A DNA stretch of 32,000 bases from an uncultured bacterium. Lineage in GTDB: Bacteria > Auribacterota > JACPWU01. The stretch lies in assembly GCA_964640155.1 (NCBI GenBank), contig CAZXEQ010000003.1:74189-106188 (forward strand). Direction: 5' to 3'. Positions 7,437-25,300 of the stretch are shown piece by piece (position 1 is the stretch's first letter; the number at the start of each line of letters is the position of its first letter). The notes below the pieces were generated by a model, which was given only the letters and a program-made list of their open reading frames with translations, did not search any database and had not been told where the DNA came from. The translations under genes and the position numbers were made by a program.

Positions 7437-7694
7437 TTATTGATCTGCTGCTTGATCAAAAGTAGGGGCTTTAAATTCAGCCACATTTTCTCTGCAGCAA
7501 ATGCTAAACCCACATAAATCTGATTGGACAATGTCTTGGGCCAGCACATCATGAATTGCTTTATGGATTCTCTGCTTGCAGGTATGACTTAAGTTTAATG
7601 CGTGCTCTTCTTCAATGACTGACTCTATTTTCTCTTCGATTTCTTGTATAAGGGTATTAAGGGTTAGATCAAGTTTGATGAAAAGCCGGGACAT
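7437..7694 (-). CDS. Small hypothetical protein (85 aa, Cys/His-containing)
   Basis: ORF track. A strong AAAGGAGG Shine-Dalgarno sequence lies 5 nt before the ATG, and palindromic box C lies 51-68 nt upstream. I recognised no family. Confidence 0.5.
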   Translation of the reverse strand: MSRLFIKLDLTLNTLIQEIEEKIESVIEEEHALNLSHTCKQRIHKAIHDVLAQDIVQSDLCGFSICCRENVAEFKAPTFDQAADQ

Positions 7695-7744
7695 ATTATC
7701 CTCCTTTCCTACGAGTTAATTATGAAGAGATCAGTATCTGAATC

Positions 7745-7762
7745 CTATGATATGGATCATAG
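7745..7762. promoter_or_regulatory. Palindromic box C, CTATGAT-ATGG-ATCATAG, upstream of the small ORF/MFS unit
   Basis: Perfect 7+7 inverted repeat with a 4-nt spacer. Confidence 0.55.
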
Positions 7763-7803
7763 AGATTTAATCGGGCAGATTTAGATGCTGAAACGAGAGT
7801 TGA

Positions 7804-8382
7804 TTAAATGATGTAAAGACTTATAAAAACTACAATCCAGACAATGTCTACAAAATGCCAATACATAGATCCAACATGAATGGCATTATGATGATGTTCT
7901 GTATTGATGCGACGCATGGTTTGAATGAGAAGAAAAACCAGAAGCAAGATTCCAATGAGTACATGTAGACCATGAAATCCTGTGATAGTGAAAAATACAG
8001 AGGCAAAGGCTCCGGTTTGGGGGACTAAGCCCTCATGAATGAGTCGAATCCATTCTAAAGCCTGAAGGCTTAGAAAACCAGAGCCTAAGACGAGGGTAAT
8101 GAGAAGATGAAAAATAAGTTTTTTCTGGTTTTTGGCAGAAATATTTTTCTGGGCTCGATGTATAAAAATGCTACTGGATAGAAGTATGACGGTATTGATG
8201 GATGTTAGTAAAAGGGGTAAATGGGGTAATTGTGGAGGAGGCCATGAAGAACTTGCAAATCGAAGGACAATGTATGCGGATAATAGTGTCGCAAACATCA
8301 TGACTTCTGTTCCTAAAAATAAAAGCATTCCAGTAGTCGAAATGACTTTTCTTTTTTGGGTAGAAACTTCTTCAAAGCTCAT
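7804..8382 (-). CDS. ctaE: Heme-copper (cytochrome c) oxidase subunit III
   Basis: ORF track, 192 aa. TGFHGLHVLIG and YWHFVDIVW motifs, 5 TM segments. Confidence 0.85.
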   Translation of the reverse strand: MSFEEVSTQKRKVISTTGMLLFLGTEVMMFATLLSAYIVLRFASSSWPPPQLPHLPLLLTSINTVILLSSSIFIHRAQKNISAKNQKKLIFHLLITLVLGSGFLSLQALEWIRLIHEGLVPQTGAFASVFFTITGFHGLHVLIGILLLVFLLIQTMRRINTEHHHNAIHVGSMYWHFVDIVWIVVFISLYII

Positions 8383-8394
8383 AACATCACCTTT

Positions 8395-10092
8395 TTACTT
8401 CACTTTCAGGATTTCGGATTGTGCAAGCCAGTCTTTACTTTCAAGTTCAGGTCGACTGTATTCGCTGGGTCCATGGTAGACAACGGGAATATTTTCAAAA
8501 TTGTGATGAGGAACAGGAGTGGAAACAGTCCATTCTAATGTGGTTGCATGCCAGGGATTGGCTTCAGCTTTTTTTCCAAAAAATAGACCCCAGAAAAAAT
8601 TAAAAATAAAAAGAAGTTGTGAACTGCCTAGAATAAAGGCTGCCCAGCTAATTTTGATGTTGAGGGGTTGAAAACGTTTTAAAAAATCATAAACCGTTGG
8701 ATCTGCAATTCTTCTCATCATTCCACCGATTCCTAAGAAAAACATTCCAAAGAAAACATAGCAGAGCGAAATAAATGTAATCCAGAAATGAATTTTAGCA
8801 ATTCCATCAGAGGTGTAACGGCCAAACATTTTTGGAAACCAATAATAAATGGCAGCAAAGCTTGCAAATAATACAGATGCTGCAAGTGTGAAATGAAAAT
8901 GGCCTACCACAAAGTAGGTATCATGAATGTAAACATCAATGGCTTGTGAAGCATTAAAAATTCCTGTTAATCCTCCGAGGGCGAATACTACAATCAAACC
9001 CAAGCAAAAGTGCATGGGAACGGTAAAACGCAAACTTCCTTTCCATAAAGTACCCAGCCAATTTAAAAAGAAGATAGAAGAAGGAATGCTTACCAGAAAA
9101 GTGGTATACATGAAAATCTTTCCTAAACTGCCACTCATGCCACTGGGGTACATGTGGTGAGCCCAAACAATGCCACTTAAAACTGAAATAATCCCCATAG
9201 AAATAACAGTGGCCTTATAGCCGAATATGGGTTTTCTTGAAAATACAGCTAGAAGATCCGAAACAATGCCCCAAGCAGGAAGAATCAAAATATAAACTTC
9301 AGGATGTCCAAAAGCCCAGAAAAGATGTTGGTAAAGGAGAACTTGCCCTCCGGTAGGTGACAGAGAGCCGACGCTAAAAAAAGTTGTTCCCGCAATTCTA
9401 TCTAAAAGAAGGAGGACAAGAGTAATAGCGACTACGGGAACAAAAACTGCATTCAAAATAGCTGTATAAAAAAGCCCCCAGATGGTTAATGGAAGTCTTG
9501 TAAAGTTCATACCTGGGGCGCGTAACATAATGATGGTCGTGATGTAATTAACAGAACCTGCAAGTGTCGATAGTCCGGCAATAGCAAGACTCAAAATCCA
9601 TAAAATTTGACCTCCATGAGGTGTAAAAAGACTCGCCAAGGGAGGATAAGAGGTCCATCCAGCTTGAGCTGCTCCTCCTTTGACAAAAAAAGAAAGAGTC
9701 ATCAACAAACTAGAAGGAATCATCAGCCAGAAAGAAAGCATGTTAAGTTTTGGAAAGGCCATATCCCGCGCACCAATTTGTAATGGAATTAAATAATTTC
9801 CAAGCGCTCCAATTAAAATGGGGGTTACAGCGAAAAATACCATGATCGTCCCATGCATGGTAACAAGCATATTGTAGCTTTCTGGAGCGAGTACCCCTTT
9901 GAGGGCTGGAAAAATTAATTTTCCAATGATAGGGATGGGTTTAAAAGGATAAGCCAATTGCCAGCGAATGACCATGGCCATGAAACCTCCAACCAATAGA
10001 AAGAAAAGGCCTGTAAATAGAAATTGCTTTCCAATCACTTTATGGTCTGTAGAGAAGATGTATTTTTTTAGAAAATTTTTCATGTTTACCAT
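8395..10092 (-). CDS. ctaD: Heme-copper oxidase subunit I (A-type)
   Basis: ORF track, 565 aa. WAFGHPEVYILILP (CuB His and cross-link Tyr), WAHHMY and VGHFHF motifs. Confidence 0.95.
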   Translation of the reverse strand: MVNMKNFLKKYIFSTDHKVIGKQFLFTGLFFLLVGGFMAMVIRWQLAYPFKPIPIIGKLIFPALKGVLAPESYNMLVTMHGTIMVFFAVTPILIGALGNYLIPLQIGARDMAFPKLNMLSFWLMIPSSLLMTLSFFVKGGAAQAGWTSYPPLASLFTPHGGQILWILSLAIAGLSTLAGSVNYITTIIMLRAPGMNFTRLPLTIWGLFYTAILNAVFVPVVAITLVLLLLDRIAGTTFFSVGSLSPTGGQVLLYQHLFWAFGHPEVYILILPAWGIVSDLLAVFSRKPIFGYKATVISMGIISVLSGIVWAHHMYPSGMSGSLGKIFMYTTFLVSIPSSIFFLNWLGTLWKGSLRFTVPMHFCLGLIVVFALGGLTGIFNASQAIDVYIHDTYFVVGHFHFTLAASVLFASFAAIYYWFPKMFGRYTSDGIAKIHFWITFISLCYVFFGMFFLGIGGMMRRIADPTVYDFLKRFQPLNIKISWAAFILGSSQLLFIFNFFWGLFFGKKAEANPWHATTLEWTVSTPVPHHNFENIPVVYHGPSEYSRPELESKDWLAQSEILKVK

Positions 10093-10799
10093 TCTTCTTC
10101 GGAAGAAGTTTTTTGATTCTCTTTTCTTTGTTCGTTAAACCACTTCTCAAGGTTTTCCTTGGTTTCAACGTTCAGATGACCTCTCATGCGATAATGTCCT
10201 AGTCCACATAACTCTGCGCAGGCAATTTCAAATTTCCCGAGCTCTGTAGCTTCAAACCAAACTTTCTGAGTCATGCCTGGGACAACATCTTGTTTGAATC
10301 GGAAATTAGGAAGCCAAAAAGAATGAATTACATCTTTGGACTCAAGCTCGACAACGACCGGTTGATGAATGGGAATATGAAGTTGATTAATGGTACGGAT
10401 GTCATCAGGGGTATTGTATAGACCATCCTTTCCTGGATATTGAATATTCCATACATACTGTTGTGCAAGGATGCGGACCGGGAATATATTTTCTGTTGGA
10501 ATTCTTTTATGAAAATCATCCCATACTCTCGCGCTTAAATTGGCAAGGCGCATATCGATAAAGAAGAAAACAGATAAAGCAAGTCCTCCCGTAAGAAGCA
10601 GATGAGGTAGACGATTCCCATGGGTATAAAAGGATTGATGACAAGAACGTTCTCGGTAGCGAATTATGAAATAAAGAAGGATAGAAACAACCAGGAGAAA
10701 GGCAATACCTGTTTCAATGACAGTTCCATAAAAAAGAGCATCGACTTTATGGCCGATGGTTGAAATATCTTTTGGAAACAAGTTTTCTTTTTCTAACAT
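10086..10799 (-). CDS. ctaC: Heme-copper oxidase subunit II (CuA domain, no fused cytochrome c)
   Basis: ORF track, 237 aa. Two N-terminal TM segments. CuA ligand pattern HSFWLP...CAELCGLGHYRM (C-x3-C-x3-H-x2-M). Overlaps subunit I by 7 nt. Confidence 0.9.
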   Translation of the reverse strand: MLEKENLFPKDISTIGHKVDALFYGTVIETGIAFLLVVSILLYFIIRYRERSCHQSFYTHGNRLPHLLLTGGLALSVFFFIDMRLANLSARVWDDFHKRIPTENIFPVRILAQQYVWNIQYPGKDGLYNTPDDIRTINQLHIPIHQPVVVELESKDVIHSFWLPNFRFKQDVVPGMTQKVWFEATELGKFEIACAELCGLGHYRMRGHLNVETKENLEKWFNEQRKENQKTSSEEEW

Positions 10800-10857
10800 A
10801 GCTTAAAATTTCCGAATAAATTTTTGAGTGATGATAAATGATTGAAATAAATTGAAG

Positions 10858-10873
10858 TATGATTTAGATCAGC
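10858..10873. promoter_or_regulatory. Palindromic box D, TATGAT-TTAG-ATCAGC, upstream of the oxidase operon
   Basis: The core TGAT-N4-ATCA is intact and the outer positions are degenerate. Lies 59-74 nt upstream of ATG 10799. Confidence 0.45.
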
Positions 10874-10883
10874 ATTCTTGTTT

Positions 10884-12344
10884 TTAGGGGATGAAGAGGC
10901 TTTGAGAGAAACTAACCTGGGTTAGGGCTTCAATCACATCTTTTGCCGAGTAAGATTTATTTCCATTTTTTATGAATCGGCTTATATTTTTTAAGTCCTC
11001 GCCAGCTGTAACGAGAGGTTTTTCAATGTCTGCGTTTGATAAGCTCTGAGGAAGTCCAATATTAGCTAGAAGTCCATTGCAAAGGCATTTTCTCCCCATA
11101 ACTTCTTCAGGATTTCCTCCTTTTTTAATGTAATATTCTATCGGTTCAGCAGGACAGCGATACCCAACAGAACCATCTTCTTTCTTATAAAGATGTCTTA
11201 AGTATCCGAGGTCACAAATTCTCTCTCGGTTTTCGTAGACCATTTTTTCAGAATTAGAATCTTCTAATGGAATTACTTTAAAAGGAAATTTTGTGGGGGA
11301 GGCAAGGGGGTCTGTAAAAATATCGACTTCTCCTTTGATGGATTTTTCAATCAGTTTTTCCTTAATAGAAGATTCCAGCCCGGACTCGTTACAAAATGCA
11401 AATGCAGTGCCTACTTGAATTCCTGTTGCACCTAAGTCAAGAGCTTCTTTGAGACGTTCTGGGGTGCTAAAGGAACCAGCCAACCAAAAAGGGAGATTTA
11501 AACTTTTGATTTTTTCAAGATCTACATCATCTTTAGATCCATAAATAGGTTCACCTCGCTCATTTAAAGAAAGCGATCCACGCGGCATAGCATTGTGTCC
11601 ACCTGCTTTGGGCCCTTCAATAACGAAGCCATCTACGCTAGGAGTGCACTTTTTAGCCAAGGTGAGACCTAAAATGGTTGAGGCAATGATAGCAATGAAC
11701 TTGGGACGCTTTAGAATAGGTAGAGGCTTTTCCATGAATGCTTGGGGACTAAAATGAATTTTAAAATTATCTTCCCCTTCAGCGCCTTCGACATTGATTG
11801 TGAGCGTTACGTCTTCATGTCGTGAAAGTTTGTCAAGAATAGCTGGAATCTCTCGAGGGATACCAGCTCCCATCAATACATAGTCGACATTTGCTAGCAT
11901 GGCGCCATAGATAGAAAAGAGATTAGGTAGTTGTATCTTCTCAAGAAAATTAATTCCAACAAGCCCGCAGTGTTCTTCTTTGGCAAGAAAGACCTCTACA
12001 AAATTTGCAACAATGGTTAATTCTTGAAGGTGAACGGGAGGATCGATGGAGAACATGGTATTGCCCTTGAAAGGTGTCTCTTTTGGTTTCCCTCCAGGGA
12101 TGAAATATTTTTCAATGATACGTTGGGCTATTTTAGGAAAAGGAAAGTGTTGTAAGGCACGACGAATATGTCCGCCGATGTCTCCCATCTGTAAGCGTCT
12201 GGAAATAATAACATCCAAGGCGGTTCCAGAAACAACTCCGAGGTGGCCCAACTTGGAGACTGTATTGGCTAGAAACCAACTGGAGACACCTGCCCCCATG
12301 CCTCCTTGAATAATTAAGGGATGACTCAAGATTTTTCCTTCCAA
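10884..12344 (-). CDS. Nitronate monooxygenase (NMO / 2-nitropropane dioxygenase) family FMN protein, long form with Cys-rich C-terminal extension
   Basis: ORF track, 486 aa. N-terminal IIQGGMGAGVSSW...GVVSG and GFVIEGPKAGGH motifs are typical of the family. Confidence 0.75.
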   Translation of the reverse strand: MEGKILSHPLIIQGGMGAGVSSWFLANTVSKLGHLGVVSGTALDVIISRRLQMGDIGGHIRRALQHFPFPKIAQRIIEKYFIPGGKPKETPFKGNTMFSIDPPVHLQELTIVANFVEVFLAKEEHCGLVGINFLEKIQLPNLFSIYGAMLANVDYVLMGAGIPREIPAILDKLSRHEDVTLTINVEGAEGEDNFKIHFSPQAFMEKPLPILKRPKFIAIIASTILGLTLAKKCTPSVDGFVIEGPKAGGHNAMPRGSLSLNERGEPIYGSKDDVDLEKIKSLNLPFWLAGSFSTPERLKEALDLGATGIQVGTAFAFCNESGLESSIKEKLIEKSIKGEVDIFTDPLASPTKFPFKVIPLEDSNSEKMVYENRERICDLGYLRHLYKKEDGSVGYRCPAEPIEYYIKKGGNPEEVMGRKCLCNGLLANIGLPQSLSNADIEKPLVTAGEDLKNISRFIKNGNKSYSAKDVIEALTQVSFSQSLFIP

Positions 12345-12387
12345 GCTTTAGATTGAAAATTTTTACAAGGCTACAGGAAAATGTGTA

Positions 12388-12417
12388 GAATAAATATGAT
12401 ATGGATCATATTTATTC
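12388..12417. promoter_or_regulatory. Palindromic box E, GAATAAATATGAT-ATGG-ATCATATTTATTC, upstream of the NMO gene
   Basis: Perfect 13+13 inverted repeat. The core 12395..12410 lies 51-66 nt upstream of ATG 12344. Confidence 0.6.
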
Positions 12418-12455
12418 TGGTCAATTTTTAGAGAAGTGAAAGAAAATCAATAAAA

Positions 12456-12471
12456 TATGATCTACATCATA
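12456..12471. promoter_or_regulatory. Palindromic box F, TATGAT-CTAC-ATCATA, upstream of nosZ
   Basis: Perfect 6+6 inverted repeat. A TATAAT hexamer lies at 12488..12493, and the nosZ ATG is at 12580. Confidence 0.55.
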
Positions 12472-12579
12472 AAGTGATTTTTGAAAATATAATAGATTAC
12501 ACGCAGTTGTTAAATAAAGGGTCTGTCGCGCCATGAATAGACCTACTCATGTAGAAAAATGTGAAACCAGGAGGTTTAT

Positions 12580-14571
12580 ATGAAATGTCTTTTGTTGAGA
12601 GTGTTTCTATTGATGGGGTTCATAACCATGTTATGTATTTCAGGTGAGGCAAGGGCAGGTGAAACCCAAGATATAAAACTGCCAGCTGATGTTGCAGCAG
12701 TGATTAAAGAGCGGGGACTAACCCCTGATGATATATTGGGGGCAGTGTCGACCTTTGTTTCTTCGGGAAAATATGATGACTATATGATGTTTGCTTCAGG
12801 CGGTCAAAGTGGGCAAATGTTTGTGATTGGACTTCCGTCGATGAGACTTTTGAGAGCTATTGCAGTTTTTACTCCTGAACCTTGGCAGGGCTATGGAGTA
12901 GGGGTTAAAGAATGTGCGCTTGAAAATATTGCTAAAACTCCTGATGGAGAAAAGATTCTAAGTGGGGATACACATCATCCTGCTCTGAGTGAAACGGGAG
13001 GAGAATACGATGGACAATATCTTTTTATTGGAGATAAGGCGCATGGACGTTTGGCGGTGATTGACTTAAAGGATTTTGAAACCAAGCAGATTATAGACAA
13101 TCCTTTAATGCACAATGATCATGGTGCCGCGTTTGTGACTCCCAATACAGAATACGTAGTTGAAGGGTCGCAATATTCTGAACCTTTGGGAAAAGTATAT
13201 GCGCCACTTTCAGATTATCAGGCCAAGTATCGAGGGGCAGCAACGTTCTGGAAATTTGATAGAACCAAAGGACGTATTGATAGGGAAAATTCTTTTGCGA
13301 TTGAACTTCCTCCTTACTGGCAAGATCTTGCAGATGCAGGAAAAGGGGCCAGTGAGGGTTGGGCATTCTGGAATTCTTTCAATACGGAAATGGCTACAGG
13401 AGGTATTGAATCAGGTAATCCTCCATTTGAAGCTGGAACGACGCAGCGGGATACGGACTATCTTCACGTTGTTAACTGGAAGAGAGCAGAAGAGGTTGTA
13501 AAAGAAGGAAAATTCAAAACGATTGAAGGCCTTAAAGTTATTTCTCTGGATGTGGCAGCGTCAGAAGGTGTTCTTTATTTCATTGCAGAACCGAAAAGTC
13601 CTCATGGTGTGGATGTAACTCCCAGTGGTAAATACATGGTGGTAGCTGGAAAATTGGATCCTCACGTGACGGTTTATGGAATTGAGAATATTAAAAAGGC
13701 GATTGCTGATAAAGATTTTGAAGGAAAGGATCCGTTCGGTGTTTCGATTATTCGATTTGACGCTGCTAAGGTAGCTCAAGTTGAATTAGGCTTAGGCCCT
13801 TTACATACTCAATTTGATGATAAAGGATATGCCTATACAAGTCTTTTTCTGGATAGCGCTATTGCCCGTTGGACTTTGGGTGATGATAAATACAAAGCAC
13901 CTGAGCAACCTTGGACCTTGGTTTCTAAAACACCGGTTCAATACAATGTAGGACATATTTCGGCTGCTGAAGGTGATACTGTGACCCCGGATGGGAAGTA
14001 TCTTGTTTCGCTTAATAAGTGGTCGGTGGATCGATTCTCCAATATTGGGCCGCTTCTTCCACAAAATCTACAGTTGATGGATATTTCAAAAACGGGAGAT
14101 AGCTTGAAGGTTTTATATGATATGCCGATTGGTGTAGGAGAGCCCCATTATGCTCAAATTATCAAGTCAGATAAAATTAAATCATGGGAGATTTATCCCG
14201 ATGTGGGTTGGGACCCTTTGACTCAAAGTAAGGGTGACAAGATGGTAACAAAAGGAAAAATTGTTCGAAATGGGGATCATGTCGAAGTTTATATTCCTGT
14301 GATACGAAGTCATTTTGATCCGGAACATATTGAGGTTAATGAAGGGGATAAAGTGACACTTTATCTTAGTAATTTGGAGAGGACTTTGGATGCCACACAT
14401 GGATTCACCATTTGCGGGTATAACATTTCCGCGAGCATTGAACCTGGGGAAACGGCAACGATTGAGTTTACAGCCGCAAAGCCAGGTGTTTTTCCATATT
14501 ATTGTTTGGAATTTTGTTCAGCGCTTCATCTTGAGATGACGGGATATTTAGTAGTTAAACCAAAAGAATAA
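12580..14571 (+). CDS. nosZ: Nitrous-oxide reductase NosZ, Sec-dependent (clade II / atypical) type
   Basis: ORF track, 663 aa. CuZ His motifs DTHHP, SPHGVDV, GPLHTQFD and EPHYAQI. C-terminal CuA motif CLEFCSALHLEM. The signal peptide lacks a twin-arginine. AGGAGG lies 7 nt before the ATG. Confidence 0.95.
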   Translation: MKCLLLRVFLLMGFITMLCISGEARAGETQDIKLPADVAAVIKERGLTPDDILGAVSTFVSSGKYDDYMMFASGGQSGQMFVIGLPSMRLLRAIAVFTPEPWQGYGVGVKECALENIAKTPDGEKILSGDTHHPALSETGGEYDGQYLFIGDKAHGRLAVIDLKDFETKQIIDNPLMHNDHGAAFVTPNTEYVVEGSQYSEPLGKVYAPLSDYQAKYRGAATFWKFDRTKGRIDRENSFAIELPPYWQDLADAGKGASEGWAFWNSFNTEMATGGIESGNPPFEAGTTQRDTDYLHVVNWKRAEEVVKEGKFKTIEGLKVISLDVAASEGVLYFIAEPKSPHGVDVTPSGKYMVVAGKLDPHVTVYGIENIKKAIADKDFEGKDPFGVSIIRFDAAKVAQVELGLGPLHTQFDDKGYAYTSLFLDSAIARWTLGDDKYKAPEQPWTLVSKTPVQYNVGHISAAEGDTVTPDGKYLVSLNKWSVDRFSNIGPLLPQNLQLMDISKTGDSLKVLYDMPIGVGEPHYAQIIKSDKIKSWEIYPDVGWDPLTQSKGDKMVTKGKIVRNGDHVEVYIPVIRSHFDPEHIEVNEGDKVTLYLSNLERTLDATHGFTICGYNISASIEPGETATIEFTAAKPGVFPYYCLEFCSALHLEMTGYLVVKPKE

Positions 14572-14582
14572 AATGAAGAAAG

Positions 14583-15704
14583 ATGGTTGATGGTATGCCT
14601 TTAAGGGAAAAGATTGTTAAAGCCTTATTATTCATTTCAATTGTGGCAATGGTTTTATCAATCTTTTTCCCTTACTGGCAACTGAAAGTGACAGCTCCTC
14701 AGTATCCTAAGGGGCTTAAAGTTACTGTTTTTTTAAATCATGTGGAGGGCGATGTTGGGGAAATAGATATTCTGAACCATTATATCGGGATGCGCTCTTT
14801 ATCTGAGGCTGCACAGATTGAAAGAAAACTGGCGATGGTTGGCATAGGGTTTATTCTGGTTTGTTTGGTCTTTGCCTTTTTCATATCCAGAAAAAAATTC
14901 TTCTTTTTTTTATTACCTGGTATTTTCTTTCCATTATTTTTTATGGGTGATCTTTATTATTGGTTGCGTGATTTTGGTTTGAATCTTAATCCCCATGCAC
15001 CTTTGAGTTCATCCGTGAAGCCTTTCATACCTCCCCTTTTTGGAATAGGCAAGATTGCTCAATTTCAAGCATTGGCGCAATTTGATACTGGATTCTTTTT
15101 AACAGTTGTTGCTTCAATTCTGATTTTGATTGCTCTTTTCTTAAGATTGGTCTCAAGAAGGAGTTGTTCTGTGGTAACAACAGGGATCATTTTTTTTGTT
15201 TTTATGTTTTCATTAGCACCGAATATTTTTGCCAAAACGATTGTTGTTAATTCCTCCTCTTCCCAAAATCTTCAAAAGGCTATCGATCAAGCAGAATCTG
15301 GGGATATCCTCGATGTTAAAGCAGGTGTTTATGATGGACCGATTCATATTAAAAAATCGATTCATTTAATAGGAGAGGCTTTCCCTATAATTGATGCACA
15401 GGGGAAGGGGAGTGGGGTTTATTTAGAAGCAGCAGATATATTGTTTAAAGGATTTGTAGTTCGAAATACAGGAAATGTCTTGTCCACAGAAGATTCAGGA
15501 CTATGGGCCACGGGAGAAAGGATTTGTATAGAAGACAATCGGTTTGAAAATGTACTTTTTGGAATCTATTTAAAGCAGGCCCCATTCGGTGTGGTCCGAA
15601 ATAATTCTTTAATCAGCAAGCCGCTGGATATTGCTCGTAGGGGAGATCTGATTCGTGTTTGGTGTAGCGATCATGTATTGATTGAAAAGAATTTTGCGAC
15701 GTAA
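14583..15704 (+). CDS. nosD: NosB-like polytopic membrane domain fused to the N-terminal part of NosD; ends at an in-frame TAA
   Basis: ORF track, 373 aa. Residues 1-215 have about 5 TM segments with APQYPKGL and NHYIGM motifs, in the position directly after clade II nosZ where nosB is expected. From KTIVVNSSSSQNLQKAIDQAESGDILDVKAGVYDGPIHI onward it reads as a NosD-type beta-helix start. Confidence 0.65.
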   Translation: MVDGMPLREKIVKALLFISIVAMVLSIFFPYWQLKVTAPQYPKGLKVTVFLNHVEGDVGEIDILNHYIGMRSLSEAAQIERKLAMVGIGFILVCLVFAFFISRKKFFFFLLPGIFFPLFFMGDLYYWLRDFGLNLNPHAPLSSSVKPFIPPLFGIGKIAQFQALAQFDTGFFLTVVASILILIALFLRLVSRRSCSVVTTGIIFFVFMFSLAPNIFAKTIVVNSSSSQNLQKAIDQAESGDILDVKAGVYDGPIHIKKSIHLIGEAFPIIDAQGKGSGVYLEAADILFKGFVVRNTGNVLSTEDSGLWATGERICIEDNRFENVLFGIYLKQAPFGVVRNNSLISKPLDIARRGDLIRVWCSDHVLIEKNFAT

Positions 15705-15713
15705 GGACGGGAT

Positions 15714-17435
15714 GTGGTGCTTTGGTTCTCGAAGAATATGCGAGTTTTGAATAACAAGTTTCAAGAGAGTCGTTATGGTTTGCATTTTATGTATTGTCAG
15801 CAGGCGGTCGTAGAACACAACAAACTTTCTCACAATTCAGTTGGTGCCTATTTGATGTACAGTGCCGGATTACAATTAAGAGAAAATATCATTTTAAACA
15901 ATCGTGGCCCTAGTGGATATGGAATAGGATTTAAAGACATGGATGAAGCGATGATTGAGAAGAATAATGTCATTGGTAATCGCGTTGGTTTTTTTCTGGA
16001 TTCTTGTATGAAGGGTTTATTTTATAACAATATGATTGCCTTGAATGATATTGGGATGCAGGTGATTCCAACTGCGAATAACAATCAATTTTCTAAAAAT
16101 AACTTTATTGAAAATGGAGAACAGATTCTTCTGGATGGTTCCAGTACGCGTACTGTCAATGCATGGAATCACAATCACTGGAGTGATTATCGCGGGTTTG
16201 ATGCAAATCAAGATGGGATTGGGGATGTTGCGTATCATCCTATGAAGCTATTCGAGAGAATTGCTGATCGATATCATACTTTAAAAGTATTTTATGGAAG
16301 TCCTTCTATAGCCGCGATTGATTTTGCTGCATCTACTTTCCCTGTTTTTCAACCAACGTCTAAATTTGTAGATGAGTTTCCAGTGATGCAACCCTTTAAA
16401 TTTTTGGGGATAGAAAAAACACCTTCTCATGTTCTACCTTGGATTCTTTTGTCTGCTGCTTTTTTTCTTCCAATGCTTGGCTTCTCTCAGTCGAGAATAA
16501 AAAGGGAAAACAGCATCGAGTCGACTGCAGAACCTCTTTTAAAAACGGGTACGCAAGTTGTGATACGTACTCAAGGGCTGACAAAACAATTTAAGAAATT
16601 GAAAGCAGTTTCAGATCTTGATTTGGAGATTCGTTTGGGTGAGGTTGTTGCGTTATGGGGCCCTAATGGGGCAGGCAAGACGACTTTGCTTCGCTGTTTG
16701 TTGGGAATCATTCCTTGTGACGGGGAAATGGAGGTTTTGGGAATGGAAGTTCGAAAAAATTCTAAGTTGGTCAGGCGGGCCATTGGATATGTTCCTCAGG
16801 AAATTCGCCTCCATTTAGATCACTCTGTTTTAGACACGGTTCGTTTTTATGCCCGGTTAAGGAGAGTTTCTGATACGCGTGTAGATCAGCTTATTCATGA
16901 GTGGGGATTGGAGGAATCAAAATACAAGCTTGTCCAAAATTTGTCTGGAGGAATGCGTCAGAAACTAGCGGTTGTCATTGCATTACTTTCTGATCCTCCC
17001 ATTCTTTTCTTGGATGAGCCAACCAGTCATTTGGATATAAAGACACGCAGAGAGTTCCTTCATTCTCTTCAGAAACTTAAAAGTCAGGGTAAGACACTGA
17101 TTTTTTGTTCACATCGATGGACTGAAGTTTGTCAAATGGCAGATCGAATTATTGTTTTAGAAGCGGGTGTCAAAAAGAGGGATGGAAAACCTGAAGAATT
17201 TAAGGATTTATTCGCAGAAGAAATTTTAATGAGATTGTCCGTGCAGAATCATTTTCTTAAAGAGGCACAAGAGATCTTAACAAAGCAGGGTTTTAAATTT
17301 TCACAAAGGGAAAATGACCTTTTGATTTTGGTGGGTCAAGCTTCAAAAATAGAACCTATTCGACTGTTGATTCAATCGGGGATTTCTATTCTCAATTTTG
17401 ATATGGATGGCGAGATCAATCATAACATGGGATGA
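15714..17435 (+). CDS. nosF: C-terminal part of NosD (beta-helix repeats), one TM segment, then the NosF ABC ATPase; same frame as 14583..15704
   Basis: ORF track, 573 aa (GTG start). RYGLHFMY, GAYLMYS and GYGIGFKD are NosD repeats. The hydrophobic segment is VLPWILLSAAFFLPMLGF. The ATPase has Walker A GPNGAGKTT, signature LSGGMRQK and Walker B ILFLDEPT. Confidence 0.75.
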   Translation: MVLWFSKNMRVLNNKFQESRYGLHFMYCQQAVVEHNKLSHNSVGAYLMYSAGLQLRENIILNNRGPSGYGIGFKDMDEAMIEKNNVIGNRVGFFLDSCMKGLFYNNMIALNDIGMQVIPTANNNQFSKNNFIENGEQILLDGSSTRTVNAWNHNHWSDYRGFDANQDGIGDVAYHPMKLFERIADRYHTLKVFYGSPSIAAIDFAASTFPVFQPTSKFVDEFPVMQPFKFLGIEKTPSHVLPWILLSAAFFLPMLGFSQSRIKRENSIESTAEPLLKTGTQVVIRTQGLTKQFKKLKAVSDLDLEIRLGEVVALWGPNGAGKTTLLRCLLGIIPCDGEMEVLGMEVRKNSKLVRRAIGYVPQEIRLHLDHSVLDTVRFYARLRRVSDTRVDQLIHEWGLEESKYKLVQNLSGGMRQKLAVVIALLSDPPILFLDEPTSHLDIKTRREFLHSLQKLKSQGKTLIFCSHRWTEVCQMADRIIVLEAGVKKRDGKPEEFKDLFAEEILMRLSVQNHFLKEAQEILTKQGFKFSQRENDLLILVGQASKIEPIRLLIQSGISILNFDMDGEINHNMG

Positions 17436-18274
17436 GATTTTTTATGGACATACGTAACACTTATATTTTGATGACTAAAGAGATGGCAGATGCGAGAAAG
17501 AACCGCTGGTTTGTTGTGATTGCGATTCTTTTTGCTCTCCTTTCACTTTCCTTAAGCCTTTTGGGTCTTTCGGGTTTGGGATCTGTAGGCGTTACAGGTT
17601 TTGGCAGAACAGCTGCGAGTCTTTTGAATCTGGTTCTTTTGATTGTTCCCTTGATGGGACTTTTACTCGGAGCTATGAGTATGGTGGGAGAAAAAGAACA
17701 AGGGACTTTATTGACTTTGCTAGCACAACCCGTGAGCGTATCAGAAATTTTGCTTGGAAAATTTTTAGGGTGTGCAATAGCCATTCTCGTAGCCCTTCTT
17801 TTAGGGTTTGGAGTCAGTGCTCTGGTGATGGGCCGTTATGCTGGAACAGAGCAAATAGGAGATTATCTTATTCTTGTGGGATTTACCCTTCTTTTGGGTT
17901 GGGCTTTTTTGAGCATAGGATTTTTTATCTCCATGTGGACGAAGCGTCATACCATGGCCTTAGGTCTAGCTCTGCTTTTCTGGTTTTTCTTTATTTTTTT
18001 GAGTGATTTGGGCCTTATCGGGACAGCCATTGTTTTGAAACTGACCCCGGGACAAATGCTAGGACTGGTACTGATAAACCCCATACAGTCATTCAAGCTT
18101 GCTGTGGCGGGTGCATTGCAGAAAAGCCTTGAGTCCTTTGGATCGATTGGAATGTATGCCATTCAAGTGTTTGGAGATGGATTGATTTTTATCTTAAGTT
18201 TTCTTTTGGTTTTGTGGCTGATTGTACCTCTTTTTTTGAGTTGGATTTTTTTTAAATCACGGTGTGTGGACTAA
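17432..18274 (+). CDS. nosY: NosY, ABC-2 type permease of the NosDFY complex
   Basis: ORF track, 280 aa, 6 TM segments. ATGA overlap with the preceding NosF frame. Confidence 0.85.
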   Translation: MRFFMDIRNTYILMTKEMADARKNRWFVVIAILFALLSLSLSLLGLSGLGSVGVTGFGRTAASLLNLVLLIVPLMGLLLGAMSMVGEKEQGTLLTLLAQPVSVSEILLGKFLGCAIAILVALLLGFGVSALVMGRYAGTEQIGDYLILVGFTLLLGWAFLSIGFFISMWTKRHTMALGLALLFWFFFIFLSDLGLIGTAIVLKLTPGQMLGLVLINPIQSFKLAVAGALQKSLESFGSIGMYAIQVFGDGLIFILSFLLVLWLIVPLFLSWIFFKSRCVD

Positions 18275-18729
18275 TGAAAAAATTTAAAATTATTTTTCTT
18301 TTATTCTTTTTGACAGGATGTAGCTCTTACCAGACCGGGAAGGTCCCTGAAATTCGGTATGGGCAGGATTTGTGTTCAGAATGCAGAATGACTTTGATGG
18401 ATGCTCCATTTGCCTGCGTTATTTTGACAGAGGATGAGGAAATTTTGAAATTTGATGATATTGCATGTATGGTTCGTTTTGAAAGAAACAATCAAACTAA
18501 AATTAAAGAGGCATGGGTTCACGATTGTGTGACACAAGCTTGGATTCAAAGATCAAAGGCTTATTTTGTTTTTGATCAAACATTAAACACTCCCATGGGT
18601 TCACATCTTATGGCGCTCGGCAGTGAAGAATCAGTACAAGAATGCTTAAAAAAGAATGGTGCAAAGCAGATAGGCTTTGATCAGATAAATGATCTTTTAA
18701 AGGAACAAATTCAAAAGGAGAGAAAATGA
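18274..18729 (+). CDS. nosL: NosL copper-chaperone lipoprotein
   Basis: I prefer ATG 18274 (MKKFKIIFLLFFLTGCSS, lipobox LTGC) to the track GTG at 18262. TAATG overlap with the nosY stop. NosL-type motif CSECRM...FDDIACM. Confidence 0.85.
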   Translation: MKKFKIIFLLFFLTGCSSYQTGKVPEIRYGQDLCSECRMTLMDAPFACVILTEDEEILKFDDIACMVRFERNNQTKIKEAWVHDCVTQAWIQRSKAYFVFDQTLNTPMGSHLMALGSEESVQECLKKNGAKQIGFDQINDLLKEQIQKERK

Positions 18730-19436
18730 AAAAAGTAAATCGTTATGCCTCGTTGTTTTTGATAAGTGTGGGAATGTTTGTTTCTTCAGTTCAGGCGGCG
18801 ACTGTTACAGGAAAAGTGGCTTATGAAGGCGATATTCCAAAACCTAAACCTGTTAGTTTTGGGGCTGAAAAACAATGTGCGGATATGCACAAGGACAAAC
18901 CTGTGATGGCGGAAGATATGGTTATTAATTCCAATCAAACTGTTAAATGGGCCTTAGTGTATGTGAAAGAGGGAGTGAAAGGAGAATTTAAGGCGCCTGA
19001 GCAGTCTGTTTTGATTGATCAGAATGGATGTATTTTTCTTCCTCATGCGGCAGCAGCAATGGTAGGGCAAAAGGTTGCTTTTCAAAATAGTGATGAAGTT
19101 CTTCATAATATTCGTGCTAACAGTAAAATCAATACACCTTTTAACATTGCTCAGCCTTTCAAAGGAATTGTGATGGAACAAGTATTTGAAAAACCTGAGG
19201 TGGGAATCGAACTGGTTTGCGATGTCCATTTCTGGATGAAGTCATATCTTCACGTATTTAATCATCCCTTCTACGCAGTGACGCAAGATGATGGAACTTT
19301 TGTCATTAAGGATTTGCCGGCAGGAAGCTACACCTTAGAAGTATGGCATGAAAAATTGGGCTCTCAAACTCAAGCAGTAACAGTGGCAGAGGGGGATTCC
19401 AAAGAAGTAGTTTTTACTTTGAAAAAATCTTCCTAA
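18726..19436 (+). CDS. Secreted cupredoxin-like (type-1 copper) protein with a C-terminal carboxypeptidase-regulatory-like beta-sandwich
   Basis: ORF track, 236 aa, signal peptide ...VSSVQA. Ligand-like pattern LHNI...CDVHFWM (H...C-x2-H-x2-M). C-terminal DGTFVIKDLPAGSYTLEVWHEKLG. ATGA overlap with nosL. Confidence 0.6.
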   Translation: MKKVNRYASLFLISVGMFVSSVQAATVTGKVAYEGDIPKPKPVSFGAEKQCADMHKDKPVMAEDMVINSNQTVKWALVYVKEGVKGEFKAPEQSVLIDQNGCIFLPHAAAAMVGQKVAFQNSDEVLHNIRANSKINTPFNIAQPFKGIVMEQVFEKPEVGIELVCDVHFWMKSYLHVFNHPFYAVTQDDGTFVIKDLPAGSYTLEVWHEKLGSQTQAVTVAEGDSKEVVFTLKKSS

Positions 19437-19477
19437 TATTTATTTGAGAGACAAATGAGGGCTAGGGGCGGAAAAAA

Positions 19478-20542
19478 TTGATTGCGACTTCGGATCTTCG
19501 TCTTGTTTTTTGGGAAACGACGGCTGGATGCAATCTAGCCTGCATCCATTGCCGTCGGCTAGAGGTATCGAAAGAGCTTTCAAAAAAAGATCTTTCTTTT
19601 TTCCAGTCTCTGGAAATGATCGACCAAATTGCAAAAACTGGAAAACCCATTCTCGTCTTGTCAGGAGGTGAGCCCCTTTTTCGAAAAGATATTTTTGATT
19701 TGGCAAGATTTGCAAGAGCTAAAGGGCTTGAAGTTGCTTTGGCTTCTAATGGAACGCTGATCGATGATTTGATGGCAAAGAAAATTAAAGATTCTGGAAT
19801 CCGAAGAGTTGCCATAAGTTTGGATGGCCCTAACAGTCAAATTCACGATACTTTTCGAGGAGAGTCCGGAGCTTTTGAAAGGGCTATTCGAGGCTGCCAG
19901 GCTATTCGAAAGGCCGGAATCAGTTTGCAAATTAACACTACATTAACTCAGCATAATCAAGATCATCGGGATGCCATTTATGATAGGGTGATGGATTTAG
20001 GTGCGGATGCTTTTCATCTTTTTATGCTGGTTCCTGTGGGATGCGGTCTTGAAATTGCAAAAAGTCATCAGGTCAATGCCCAAAAATATGAAGAAATTTT
20101 ACAATGGCTTTATGAAAAATCTTTGGAACAGAAAATCCATGTTCGAGCAACCTGTGCCCCGCACTATTTTCGTATTTTACGACATCACGCAATAAAAGAG
20201 AAGCGGCCCATGTCTTATTCAAAACGGGGAATGCAGGCGATGACTCGAGGTTGTTTGGCCGGAAGCTCCATTTGTTTTATTTCTCACGAGGGAAAAGTTT
20301 TCCCCTGTGGCTATTTACCCCTATCGTCTGGAACTGTACCCAAAACATCTTTTGAGCAGATATGGAACACATCTGATGTTTTTCAACTCTTAAGAAATAC
20401 ACAGAACTTAAAAGGCAAATGTGGAATGTGTGAATTTAAGAAAGTTTGTATGGGATGTCGCGCAAGGGCTTATTACCAGACAGGTGATTATTTAGAAGAG
20501 GAACCCTTTTGTGTGTATGAGCCTCAAGAAAGGAAATATTAA
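19478..20542 (+). CDS. Radical SAM/SPASM protein of the NirJ/AhbC/AhbD family (AhbD-like, tentative)
   Basis: ORF track, 354 aa, TTG start. CNLACIHC (CxxxCxxC) cluster motif and C-terminal CGMCEFKKVCMGCRARA. Confidence 0.8.
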   Translation: MIATSDLRLVFWETTAGCNLACIHCRRLEVSKELSKKDLSFFQSLEMIDQIAKTGKPILVLSGGEPLFRKDIFDLARFARAKGLEVALASNGTLIDDLMAKKIKDSGIRRVAISLDGPNSQIHDTFRGESGAFERAIRGCQAIRKAGISLQINTTLTQHNQDHRDAIYDRVMDLGADAFHLFMLVPVGCGLEIAKSHQVNAQKYEEILQWLYEKSLEQKIHVRATCAPHYFRILRHHAIKEKRPMSYSKRGMQAMTRGCLAGSSICFISHEGKVFPCGYLPLSSGTVPKTSFEQIWNTSDVFQLLRNTQNLKGKCGMCEFKKVCMGCRARAYYQTGDYLEEEPFCVYEPQERKY

Positions 20543-20544: not shown

Positions 20545-21756
20545 ATGATCGACCTTACACGTCTTTATTGTAATGAGAAAACAGCAGGTGAGAAAATTCG
20601 TTATGAATGGCGAGAAAAAGAAAAGGATGTACTTCAATCAGCCATGGACCGGCGTCCTGTGGTTGTTTGGAATATGACTAGGACCTGTAATCTGAAATGT
20701 ATGCATTGCTATTCAGATTCAGAAGGTAAGATCTATCCAGGTGAATTAACAACAGATGAGGCTTTGGCTGTTGTTCATGACTTGGCGCAATTTAAAGTTC
20801 CTGCTTTGCTCCTTTCCGGGGGAGAACCCCTTTTAAGAAAAGATCTTTTTTTGATTGCACAAGAAGCAAGACGATTGGGGCTTCGTGTCACTTTATCGAG
20901 TAATGGAACTTTGATCACACGAGAGATTGCCGAGAAAATCAAGGAAGCAGGTTTTATTTATGTGGGTTTGAGTTTGGATGGCATTGGAGAGGTTCATGAT
21001 CACTTTCGAGGTGTCAAAGGTGCTTTTAAAAAAACTCTTTCTGCTATTCGACATTGTAAAGAGGTAGGACAAAAGGTGGGTTTGAGGCTGACCATGACGC
21101 GTCATACCATTCAAAATCTTGATGAAATTTTTAATCTTATGATTACAGAAAAAATTGATAGAGCCTGCTTCTATCATTTGGTATTTACAGGTAGGGGAAG
21201 ATTTTTAAAAGAGGAGGCTTTATCTCGAGATGAATTGCGAGAAGCGATGGATCTCATTATAAAATGGACGAAAAATTTGCATCTTTTAGAAATAAAAAAA
21301 GAAATACTCACTGTTGGAAATCCTGCAGATGGTGTTTATCTTTATTTGAAACTTCTCAAAGAAGGTAGAAAAGACAAAGCACAAGAAGTTCTGGATCTTA
21401 TTACTTTGAATGGTGGAGGTCAGTTTGGTTCAGGTGTAGGGTTAGGATGCATCGACTTTTTTGGAAATGTTCATCCGGATCAATTTTGGATGACCCAGAC
21501 TTTGGGTAATGTGAAAGACAAACCCTTTAGTCAGATTTGGCAAGATGTTAGTCATCCCCTGATGAAGGGATTGAAAAATCGCTTACCTCTTCTAAAGGGA
21601 AGATGTGCTTCTTGCTTTTGGAAGGCTCAATGTGGGGGAGGTCTTCGCACCAGGGGCTATCTTGCGACACAAGATCCATGGGCTGAAGATCCAGGCTGTT
21701 ACTTGTCTGATGAGGAAGTTTTTAATAAATTTGCTACGCGTTCCACAGCATTCTGA
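20545..21756 (+). CDS. Radical SAM protein of the NirJ/AhbC/AhbD family (NirJ/AhbC-like, tentative)
   Basis: ORF track, 403 aa. LTRLYCNEKTAGEKIRY...RPVVVWNMTRTCNLKCMHCYS is a typical NirJ-like N-terminus. C-terminal CASCFWKAQCGGG. Confidence 0.8.
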   Translation: MIDLTRLYCNEKTAGEKIRYEWREKEKDVLQSAMDRRPVVVWNMTRTCNLKCMHCYSDSEGKIYPGELTTDEALAVVHDLAQFKVPALLLSGGEPLLRKDLFLIAQEARRLGLRVTLSSNGTLITREIAEKIKEAGFIYVGLSLDGIGEVHDHFRGVKGAFKKTLSAIRHCKEVGQKVGLRLTMTRHTIQNLDEIFNLMITEKIDRACFYHLVFTGRGRFLKEEALSRDELREAMDLIIKWTKNLHLLEIKKEILTVGNPADGVYLYLKLLKEGRKDKAQEVLDLITLNGGGQFGSGVGLGCIDFFGNVHPDQFWMTQTLGNVKDKPFSQIWQDVSHPLMKGLKNRLPLLKGRCASCFWKAQCGGGLRTRGYLATQDPWAEDPGCYLSDEEVFNKFATRSTAF

Positions 21757-22106: not shown

Positions 22107-22330
22107 AGTTATTGTAACATAGCAAATTAAATTTGAATTAATGATATAGAAACTTAGTGCAAGGTAGAAGTTTTTATTTTTAAGTTTTTTAATTTATTCT
22201 ATAACTTATTTATTAAGAGGTAATTACAAATTATTTATTATATGGGCTATTTGTCTTTTGAGCTATTTTGTGCTATGTTAACTAAAGTGTGTAAGGGGAA
22301 ACTGAGGTGGGTAACTAGGGGAGTTTTTTA

Positions 22331-25300
22331 ATGAGAAGTGGTAGCTCTTTCTGGCATGTTTTTTTTAGAAAAATAAATTCTTGGATTATCATTTTTTCAT
22401 TTCTTTTAAGTTCTATTCCAGAACTTAATGAACCACTTTGGGCTCAAACAACTTTTTCCAAAAATGCCTTACCTGCTCAAATATTTTCTCCTGAAACTTT
22501 TTCTCATTCTTGGTCTAAAAAAATCAATTCTCTAGAAACTCCAGATTTAGATTTGGGTGAAATTTATCAGGGACAAACGAATGTGGGTATTTTTTTAATT
22601 CGTGACCTGCATTGTCAGCCACAAGCTCAACTTAAAGTTGCCAGAGGAATAGAAAAATTTTGTGAATTAGCAGGCGTTTCAAAAGTTTTTATAGAGGGAG
22701 CAAGTGATGAGATCAACATGGATCTTTATCAAGCATTTCCTGATGCAAAAATTAGGCATCTTGTGGCGCTTCATTTTTTAGAAAAAGGATATCTTACGGG
22801 ACCTGAATTTTTAAGCATGGAAATGGGAAATAAAAGTCAGTTTAAACTTTACGGGGTTGAAAACTCAAAGCTATATTTAGAAAATTTTGACGCTTTTCAA
22901 AAAATAAAATCTTTTTATAAGAAAAATAAAAAGATTATTGAACAAGTGAGTGAAAAGTTAAAAAGTTTAAAAAAAGAAAAAATTTCGAAAAATTTAAATA
23001 ATTTTATGGATCAATGGGAGGCTTGGCAGAATGGTGAGCTGAGTTTGCCTGATTTTCTTGCCAGAGTGGAGCCGTTAATTAAAGAGAAGGGTCAGAATAT
23101 TGAAGGAAGCCAGAAGATTTTAAAATGGTGTTCTTGGATAAAAGAAGCCAAGGGTTTAAATAGTCCAAAAATCCAACAAGAGCTTAATTCCTTCTTGCAT
23201 GAAATGGAGAAAAAACTGACTCAAGAATCTTTGAAAAATCTTGCCCCCTATCGGGGACTATCCTTACAGGACTATCTCTACGAGACTGCAAAAGCCCGTA
23301 AAAGATTGAAAAATCTTGTTGAGAAAACTTTGAAATATCGCTTGGGAAAAATCTCGCCAAAAAGTTATTTAGAGTATGTGAAGAGGCTTTATGAGAATCA
23401 TACCCAATCCTCTAAAAGTTTTGATCAAGCGTTTTCTGCCTTGGCTTTCTGGTATGTGTCTTTGGAGGAAGGGGAAGAGATGAAGCGTTCGAATATTTCA
23501 AAGATATTAAACCGTGTGATGGATGATTTAACGGATCAATGGGCAAAAGAAGAGGGATCTCAAGCCTTTATCGCTTTGTATAAGGATTGGGAATTATTAA
23601 AAAAAGGATTTCGATTGGAATTTGAGCGAAATGAAAGAAGGCAATTTTCTTTGTGGATAAAGAAAACAGGTTGGAAAAATTTTAGTAAAGATTCTCAAGA
23701 ATTAGGGATTGTTCTAGATGAAGAAAACTTTGAAAAAATCATTCAGAATATAGATCAATTTTATGATCTTGCCATCAAGCGTGATCATGTGATGGTGAAT
23801 AATCTTTTGAAAAAAGTGAAACAACCCACAATCCACCATCCTCAAATCACTGTTTTAATTGCTGGGGGTTTTCATACAGAAGGAATTCAAAGACTGCTTA
23901 AAAAGAAAGGGATTTCTTACGCTGTTTGGACACCCAAGATGACAGGCGAATTTGATAATCATCTTTATGAAGAAAGAATGATTGAACAGGCTCGTGCGGT
24001 GAGGTCCAGTTCTGCGAGTTTCTCATTTGATCGTAAACGAATAATAACCCCTCCACCTCCCCTTAAATTAAGGGGAGTGAAAATGAAAGAGGAAGACTCC
24101 CCTCTTAAATTAAGAGGGGTGGGGGGAGTTATATCAAAAAAAGTAGAAAAGCTTTCTGCTGCTTTGATTTTGGATAATATTTTGGAGATGTTAGGAAAAG
24201 AGGCCTTTGATCAAGCAACGTTTCGACATCGGGTTGAGATTTTAAGAAGATTAATGCAAGACTTGAGACGGGATGTCATTGCGAGGGAAGCTGATTTATC
24301 GGCTGACCGAAGCAATCTTGTTTTAGAAGACGAGATTGCTTCGCCTACGGCTCGCAATGACACGCGAGCTAGCCAGGGAAATTATTTTTCCGTGAATGAG
24401 GTTGTCGAAACATGGCTTGCTGAAATACGTGGGGAAGAAAAAAATATTTTAGGAAAAATGCAATGGGATGACATTCGTCTCCTTTTTGAGGCTTTGGATC
24501 CGGAAGGGGTTATGGCGGATGATCAATTTGATCCCAATAATGAAATTCAAAGAGGATTATATATAGAAGCTGTTGAACAGGCTTATGGAGAATTATTTCC
24601 CGCCCGCGTTGCGTTGACTAAGGCTTATTTTGATTTGCGATCTCAAAGGGAAGAGGCTGACGCTTCAGAAGTTTCTCCAGATGGAGTTCGTATTTATCGA
24701 GGGAAAGAGACTTTGGAGCTTCTAGGGATGGATTATCCAGAATTTCAAAGATTTATTAGGGCTCTTCTGGCCTTTGAAGAAGAGATCAAAAACGACTCTC
24801 TTTTTATCGCTGCTTCGAGTCGATTGATTTCTATGAGAACTGGGTGGCGTATGGCACAAGATGTTTTAGAAATGACTAAGAAATTTAAGGATATGGAAAT
24901 AAAGAATCCTTTGGGATATGCCTTAATATATGCTTTTGAAAATAATTATTCTGATTTGCTCGACTCTATGGCTGTTGGAGACCAGATGATTCGCGTTTTT
25001 ATAACGCACTGTGCTTTATGGTTGGGGGCTGACTTTTTTGATAGAACTCAGCATGCTGAAAGAAATATTTTGAGAATATGGTATAAAATTCAGAAAAATG
25101 GAACTTTAAGTTATGTTGAAGAAAAAGTCGCTCGTGCTCTCATGGGCAATAAACCTGTTCTTTTTGAAGAAGAGCCAGGATCAGATCCAGAACTTATGGA
25201 AGCCGTTCATTTTTTTGGAAAGGATGCACAGATCAGTGAGATTCACCTTCATCCTTTTACAGATGATGCGCATTTGATGGGACGGCGAATTCCAAGAGAG

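Follow-up and report, generated by a model that had tools for sequence, protein, structure and literature searches.

A probable recent nonsense mutation in a fused nosBDF gene of an uncultured bacterium, and the common NosB–NosD–NosF architecture to which it belongs

Described Nos systems and the present locus

The closest described relatives of the gene treated here, a fused nosB–nosD–nosF reading frame (nosBDF) in a nitrous oxide (N2O) reductase gene cluster of an uncultured bacterium, are the NosDFY(L) copper-delivery ATP-binding cassette (ABC) complex of Pseudomonas stutzeri (PDB 7o0y, 7o14, 7osf) and the clade II NosB proteins of the Wolinella succinogenes type. The solved P. stutzeri complexes hold the β-helix protein NosD and the ATPase NosF at a ratio of 1:2 (16 NosD chains in 16 entries versus 30 NosF chains in 15 entries), and the copper route is given as NosL to NosD to NosZ in work cited in bioRxiv 10.64898/2025.12.16.694761. 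NosB, defined as a polytopic membrane protein with 4 or 6 transmembrane (TM) helices that is encoded directly after clade II nosZ, has the named signature LNHYIGM (PMC9697520). In Wolinella, NosB is cited as indispensable to clade II N2O respiration (PMC9697520), and its role is debated between electron transfer and copper handling. NosB–NosL fusions are recorded in Dyadobacter and Flavobacterium (PMC9697520). The Gram-positive NosD of Bacillus azotoformans ends in a C-terminal TM helix (PMC3475470). Finally, the databases hold a family of NosB–NosD–NosF proteins, such as P0001 from assembly GCA_041906865.1, under the NCBI name 'nitrous oxide reductase family maturation protein NosD'.

The DNA analysed (hereafter the window) is a 32,000-nucleotide (nt) stretch of contig CAZXEQ010000003.1 (assembly GCA_964640155.1, positions 74,189 to 106,188; GTDB lineage Bacteria; Auribacterota; JACPWU01), and all coordinates below are those of the window, on the + strand unless stated otherwise. 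The gene order nosZ, nosBDF, nosY, nosL, orf236 is that of a clade II nos cluster. As in P. stutzeri, there are a NosD β-helix and a NosF ATPase, with NosY and NosL encoded immediately downstream; the window differs in that NosD is linked covalently to NosF (via a TM helix) and to NosB (at the N-terminus), in that the cluster belongs to clade II (Sec-type NosZ), and in that the NosD module is cut by a stop codon. The fusion of NosD to NosF implies a 1:1 ratio of the two, unlike the 1:2 ratio of the solved complexes. The NosB part resembles clade II NosB in its four TM helices (plus a signal-anchor), its location directly after nosZ (the open reading frame (ORF) starts 12 nt past the nosZ stop) and its LNHYIGM signature at residue 64, but it is fused in frame to NosD, and the second NosB motif, expected as YGHN, is FGLN (residue 131). 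The helix that is terminal in B. azotoformans NosD runs on into NosF in the window. Domain order and topology are shared with P0001-type fused genes; those are uninterrupted, whereas the window has TAA where P0001 has CAA. This stop is probably a real and very recent CAA→TAA nonsense mutation that makes the fused nosBDF a null or strongly hypomorphic allele.

A single in-frame stop codon within NosD

ORF 14583..15704 (373 amino acids (aa), ATG start) and ORF 15714..17435 (573 aa, GTG start) share one frame. Translation of 14583..17435 gives 951 codons with a single internal stop, the TAA at 15702..15704, which falls between ...LIEKNFAT and GRDVVLWFSKN... (local sequence acgTAAGGAcgggatGTGGTG; acg TAA GGA cgg gat GTG GTG). 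Readthrough would give a NosB–NosD–TM–NosF protein of 950 aa. The initial annotation had described two same-frame ORFs separated by this TAA only, a TAAGGA with an AGGA 6 nt upstream of GTG 15714, and NosD and NosF in one ORF; retranslation and direct reading of the sequence agree with the first two statements, and translation and profile searches revealed no overlooked stop or frameshift between NosD and NosF.

The ancestral codon at the site is Gln (CAA), as judged from the relatives. The closest of these, L001 (GCA_041906865.1), is syntenic with the window at 86.7% nt identity over 6.7 kb, and its protein P0001 (938 aa, 86% identical over 99% of the length, same flanking genes) has CAA at the site. 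L083, a metagenome-assembled genome (MAG) named 'Chlamydiae bacterium', has CAG, and L084 and L085 have CGG. In an alignment of 15 sequences the stop column is variable (Q/R/G/N/E/D), is occupied by Gln in the two closest relatives, and is flanked by an invariant N370 and an invariant G375-R376-D377. The relatives in this alignment have a residue in place of the stop, and a split in mid-NosD was found in no relative in either the protein search or the alignment. Among JGI metagenome contigs, no other allele or copy of the site was found (0 matches to the exact pattern with a free codon, and no relative in a protein-guided scan). On these comparisons the TAA appears to be lineage-specific and one C→T transition away from CAA.

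The TAA is read here as a terminator. Of the 17 ORFs tabulated for the window, 13 terminate in TAA, at positions matching those of homologues, so the genetic code is standard with no sign of reassignment, and code reassignment was rejected. A change of code or a programmed recoding of the TAA is therefore extremely improbable; nothing speaks for it except the in-frame stop itself, and the relatives have CAA, CAG or CGG at the site.

The stop is also found in a second, independently built assembly. Logan contig L002 (run SRR8893623; 8731 bp) is 100.000% identical to window positions 10483..19213, with the same two ORFs and the same TAA, so that both pieces are on record from NCBI (a 357-kb contig) and from Logan. 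This speaks for a real nonsense mutation rather than a base-call error. The error, one of three alternatives among which the initial annotation did not choose, would fit the sense codons of the relatives, but the second assembly reproduces the TAA, which leaves that argument half standing. More broadly, the TAA could have arisen in sequencing, assembly or consensus calling, or could be a minority allele, in an organism whose true codon is CAA and whose 950-aa NosBDF is intact. Such an origin would account for a single-base change at a site where all relatives have a sense codon, in a gene and cluster that otherwise look fully functional, and the source is apparently a metagenome-derived assembly, so population heterogeneity is possible. 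However, the genes syntenic with L001 are all intact, an ORF of more than 3227 codons in the window is uninterrupted, and the Logan agreement over 8.7 kb includes the TAA, which together make a random consensus error unlikely. Substitution errors are in any case rare in short-read consensus sequences, and an artefact or minority allele is accordingly considered unlikely as an explanation of the stop.

Domains and topology of the read-through product

The NosB domain (residues 1-190; 14583..15152) comprises four TM helices and two periplasmic loops, as assigned from BLASTP, motifs, hydropathy and the AlphaFold model of P0001. The N-terminal 200 residues of the product had no match in Pfam or NCBIfam profile searches, and the assignment proposed in the initial annotation is borne out by the LNHYIGM signature and by a BLASTP match (E=3e-26 with 29% identity over 198 residues) to a Sulfurovum NosB (L024 322..1119), whose ORF is flanked by the end of nosZ and by nosD in a canonical epsilonproteobacterial cluster (nosB-D-G-C1-C2-H-F-L). 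The second motif reads GLN or GLH in most fused homologues in the alignment. A fifth TM segment (residues 197-215; 15171..15227) is signal-peptide-like, ends in ...PNIFA|KT, and looks like a former NosD signal peptide that would now serve as an internal signal-anchor placing NosD in the periplasm. This assignment comes from a hydropathy peak and from comparison with L084, where nosB is separate and the NosDF protein P0005 starts at the equivalent hydrophobic stretch (MTRAVILLSAFFLLM...).

The NosD module of roughly 400 residues follows, its β-helix divided in two by the stop. The N-terminal half (residues 216-373; 15228..15701) aligns with P. stutzeri NosD (7o0y_A) and with the first part of the NosD profile TIGR04247 (residues 230-370 of piece 1 on profile positions 1-143, 125.9 bits). 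The C-terminal half with its helical tail (residues 375-600; 15705..16382) matches PF05048 (1e-28) and the remainder of TIGR04247 (residues 2-226 of piece 2 on positions 153-377, 235.1 bits), and the stop thus interrupts one continuous NosD homology. Each piece scores below the curated cut-off of 300 bits, which the rough sum of 361 for the read-through product would pass. The NosD part also matches 7o0y_A as a whole (phmmer E=3.8e-30, residues 47-421). By these matches the NosD homology is certain, yet an intact NosD does not appear to be encoded. In the alignment with 7o0y_A the stop falls midway along the β-helix, and the equivalent residue of P0001, Q370, lies in the AlphaFold model at the turn that joins β-strands 367-369 and 374-377, near the midpoint of the β-helix. 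Both comparisons agree with the earlier view that the stop lies inside the β-helix, off any domain boundary.

A sixth TM helix (residues 617-635, VLPWILLSAAFFLPMLGFS; 16431..16487), assigned from hydropathy and from helix 614-629 of the P0001 model, joins the periplasmic NosD to the cytoplasmic NosF and is followed by the positively charged SQSRIKRE. The NosF-type ABC ATPase with its C-terminal regulatory domain (residues ~655-950, plus the TGA stop; 16545..17435) matches PF00005 (1.3e-29) and has the ABC ATPase motifs (Walker A GPNGAGKT, signature LSGGM, Walker B LFLDEP). The closest solved relative is NosF: the ATPase part of P0001 matches NosF 7o0y_B (phmmer 6.4e-36), and the top Foldseek match of the P0001 model in the PDB is NosF of NosDFY (7o14_B, E=1.5e-18). 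The gene for the NosY permease adjoins. The profile, phmmer and Foldseek matches thus uphold the NosD and NosF identities of the initial annotation. Export and TM calls throughout are hydropathy calls, with TM segments at residues 11-29, 83-101, 106-124, 172-190, 197-215 and 617-635. The P0001 model (mean predicted local distance difference test score 84.9) has helices and strands in the NosB part, a β-helix at ~215-525, the helix at 614-629 and NosF from 655, a layout that agrees with the hydropathy topology and with the topology originally proposed (about five TM segments, a periplasmic NosD, one TM segment and a cytoplasmic NosF).

Selection, age of the stop and probable consequences

The ratio of nonsynonymous to synonymous substitution rates (dN/dS; Nei-Gojobori, window versus L001, dS≈0.59) is 0.082 for NosD before the stop, 0.088 for NosD after the stop and 0.123 for NosF, and 0.05 and 0.041 for the neighbouring nosZ and nosY. 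No second lesion (frameshift or stop) was found in nosBDF. The low values on both sides of the TAA and the lack of a further lesion indicate that the stop is either very young relative to dS≈0.59 or tolerated. Of the features that mark a pseudogene, interruption of the ORF relative to intact orthologues is present, and relaxed selection or further lesions are absent, a combination that fits only a very recent event. Private changes at conserved columns (agreement in at least 70% of 13 outgroup sequences) are likewise not in excess, with 4 in the window versus 4 in P0001. Three of the four window changes (T242I, D298N, Y361C) fall in the N-terminal half of NosD, numbers that are too small to interpret. 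T242I (15306..15308) alters an invariant NosD position (GDT→GDI) and Y361C (15663..15665) a position that is 92% conserved (VWYSD→VWCSD), both upstream of the stop; the two could be early relaxed constraint or plain lineage variation.

Under the favoured explanation, a single C→T transition turned a Gln codon (CAA) in the middle of the β-helix into TAA. Translation would stop after residue 373, giving NosB and half a β-helix, and any product restarted at GTG 15714 or GTG 15717 would carry the remaining half of the β-helix, would lack an export signal and would have difficulty in reaching the periplasm. By hydropathy, piece 2 begins MVLWFSKNMRVLNN... with no hydrophobic signal, and its sole TM segment lies ~240 residues downstream; the signal-anchor at 197-215 precedes the N-terminal NosD half only, and the C-terminal half has no N-terminal hydrophobic segment. 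The NosDFY-type copper-delivery machine would most likely be inactive, or would be left with trace full-length protein made by near-cognate readthrough, and NosZ would then be without its CuZ centre. In P. stutzeri, nos mutants that have lost nosD, nosF or nosY make a CuZ-deficient, inactive NosZ. It is on these grounds that we infer a loss of function.

Alternatively, the gene could be functional in two pieces, with termination at the TAA and a restart 10-13 nt downstream at GTG 15714 or GTG 15717, after which the NosD halves would reassemble in the periplasm. The ~240-residue N-tail of the second piece would be exported by the downstream TM anchor and would dock on the NosB-anchored half, giving a naturally split β-helix. 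The possible restart site, perhaps accidental, spans 15703..15719 by direct reading (AAGGA at 15703-15707, GTG 15714, GTG 15717); the -11 spacing of its AAGGA is that of the Shine-Dalgarno motifs of nosZ and orf236, and the 9-nt distance from stop to start suits termination-reinitiation. Purifying selection is not relaxed past the stop (although a young mutation explains the unchanged dN/dS equally well), the positive charges of SQSRIKRE after the sixth TM helix fit an N-out orientation, and in this family nosB, nosD and nosF often fuse or separate at their domain borders. The present split, however, lies mid β-helix, away from a domain border, and is unique to the window sequence. The Shine-Dalgarno-like motif consists of the conserved G-R-D-V-V codons and predates the stop, as L001 has it too (CAAGGACGGGATGTAGTG); it therefore did not arise by selection for a restart. 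Piece 2 lacks a signal peptide, and its only TM segment comes after ~240 periplasmic residues; the translocation of such a long N-tail by Sec/YidC insertion is very inefficient. Hence, of the translationally coupled two-piece NosD that the initial annotation had thought conceivable, the ribosomal step is possible, with a start and a Shine-Dalgarno motif near the upstream stop, but piece 2 has no export signal by hydropathy, and the split is neither shared by a relative nor placed at a domain boundary. A working two-piece gene is regarded as unlikely.

Leaky termination would offer a milder outcome, in which near-cognate decoding of the UAA, most plausibly by tRNA-Gln, yields a little full-length NosBDF and the allele is not a null but a tolerated hypomorph. 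Such decoding would put the ancestral Gln back, the variability of the column means that any inserted residue would serve, and the remaining cluster is maintained. These points are countered by the lack of conservation of the stop in relatives, by the lack of a stimulatory RNA structure past the stop (15690..15810, minimum free energy z=+1.12), and by the content of the window, which holds neither a suppressor tRNA nor any other tRNA gene. Neither of the hallmarks of programmed readthrough, a conserved stop and a downstream structure, is thus seen here. UAA is normally the least leaky stop codon, and a tolerated leaky stop is judged improbable.

While a recent nonsense mutation is the reading preferred here, several observations weigh against it. 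The TAA is supported at the level of the assembly consensus rather than by an allele frequency in reads. The NCBI and Logan assemblies may also derive from a single read set and would then not count as independent samples; a literature search for the accession SRR8893623 gave no match. Apart from nosBDF, the nos genes are all intact and strong purifying selection acts on them, as expected of a cluster still in use. The AAGGA lies at -11 from GTG 15714, which makes translation of the second half probable. A cell may require little of an assembly factor, and low-level readthrough that restores Gln might then suffice. Additionally, the view taken here is that of a 32-kb window, and a second nosD copy elsewhere in the genome is possible.

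Distribution of the fused architecture

With the read-through product as query, 784 proteins scored at E≤1e-10 among the candidates scored. Almost all of the best 120 of these 784 are 860-1300 aa long with more than 90% query coverage, and their sources include Chlamydiae, Planctomycetes/Isosphaeraceae, Poribacteria and Omnitrophica, to which the genome loci add Chloroflexota and Acidobacteriota. These genome loci are among the matches listed from a scan of GTDB representative genomes with generic ABC motifs, a set that includes neither the window's own genome nor its closest relatives. Related loci show varied arrangements: nosB, nosD and nosF all separate (L007, L008, L010-L013), nosB separate from a fused nosDF (L003-L006, L027, L084), nosBD fused with a separate nosF (L014, L016-L018), and all three fused (the window, L001); calls of separate frames are tblastn frames rather than ORF-by-ORF. 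Some homologues are longer still (P0089, P0106, P0107, P0111, P0112, P0118 and P0120; 1270-1300 aa) and contain ABC-2 permease (NosY) domains. At ~97-98% query coverage these presumably carry NosB too, and such a NosB–NosD–NosF–NosY chain would be a complete half-transporter in a single polypeptide.

In L084 and L085 (67% identical), NosB has an ORF of its own (192 aa), which shares 4 nt (ATGA) with nosDF; in L084 the two lie at 7426..8004 and 8001..10268, respectively. The NosB–NosD fusion can thus be explained by the loss of one stop at a coupled junction, and the varied arrangements together with this overlap indicate that fusion and fission at domain borders are evolutionarily easy. Literature searches aimed at NosB–NosD(–NosF) or NosD–NosF fusions found no description of either. 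The initial annotation had called both fusions unusual, which holds relative to characterised systems but not in the databases, where the fused architecture is abundant across several phyla. The NosB–NosD–NosF fusions are common and apparently undescribed in papers, yet plainly visible in public annotation, and the stop in the window is most likely an ordinary lesion that has struck one member of this widespread architecture.

The nos cluster and neighbouring genes

The nosZ gene (12580..14571) is intact and encodes a clade II (Sec-type) N2O reductase with nos_propeller and cupredoxin domains. It matches TIGR04246 over its full length at 829.2 bits (cut-off 625), compared with 422 bits against the clade I model (cut-off 625), and is preceded by a Shine-Dalgarno motif AGGAGG at -11. 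Downstream of nosBDF lie nosY (17432..18274; ABC-2 permease, PF12679 3.5e-31), which overlaps the nosBDF stop by 4 nt, and nosL (18262..18729; copper chaperone lipoprotein, PF05573 1.6e-12). Relative to L001, nosL has a dN/dS of 0.277 at a dS of only 0.235, noticeably above the other nos genes. No NosR or NosX was seen within the window, and a promoter and terminator scan of 12300..19600 gave nothing above shuffled expectation within the gene.

Directly after nosL, orf236 (18726..19436) encodes a 236-aa protein with a CarboxypepD_reg-like β-sandwich domain. Equivalents follow nosL in L001 (4927..5637), L084 (11584..12294) and L085 (8292..9002), with a dN/dS of 0.079 versus L001. The product is a conserved candidate for an extra nos accessory protein, for which no name was found in the nos literature searched. 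Two radical-SAM genes follow downstream of the cluster (19478..20542, also with a SPASM domain, and 20545..21756) and are kept in relatives (L001 5658..6737 and 7609..8820; L083 4174..5217). In L001 a DUF2490 gene sits between the two, an insertion that is not present in the window.

Upstream of the cluster, an NnrS-family membrane protein (3518..4783) is followed by an Alginate_exp-type outer-membrane porin (4806..6128), a pair that in L084 lies just downstream of the nos cluster (12836..15479), which suggests a conserved association with N-oxide metabolism. Adjoining the nos cluster are COX2-COX1-COX3 (cytochrome c oxidase subunits II, I and III; 7804..10799, - strand) and an NMO-family gene (10884..12344). 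Together, the COX and NMO genes look like a free-living-type respiratory repertoire in a lineage whose relatives bear the name 'Chlamydiae bacterium', and the nos locus probably stems from an environmental Chlamydiota-like bacterium. The giant uninterrupted ORF at 22319..31999 (more than 9.6 kb and 3227 codons) runs off the end of the window, with a match to AAA_5 (dynein-related ATPase) at residues 1196-1269 and several weak WD40/β-propeller matches at ~2470-3035.

Implications for NosB

For the organism itself, the stop codon matters little and at most warns that N2O reduction may be absent in a MAG that counts as 'nosZ-positive'. For the family, the fusions carry more weight, and they do so independently of the stop. 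In hundreds of database proteins from several phyla, as in the window, NosB forms one reading frame with NosD, NosF and sometimes NosY. By the Rosetta-stone argument this points to a physical partnership between NosB and the NosDFY copper-insertion machine, and the fusion fixes the topology of NosB as N-in, C-in. Judged from these gene structures, NosB may be a stoichiometric membrane subunit of the copper-delivery machine and not an electron-transfer component. The covalent tie between NosB and NosDFY across many phyla thus bears on the role of NosB, and is more useful in this respect than the stop codon itself.

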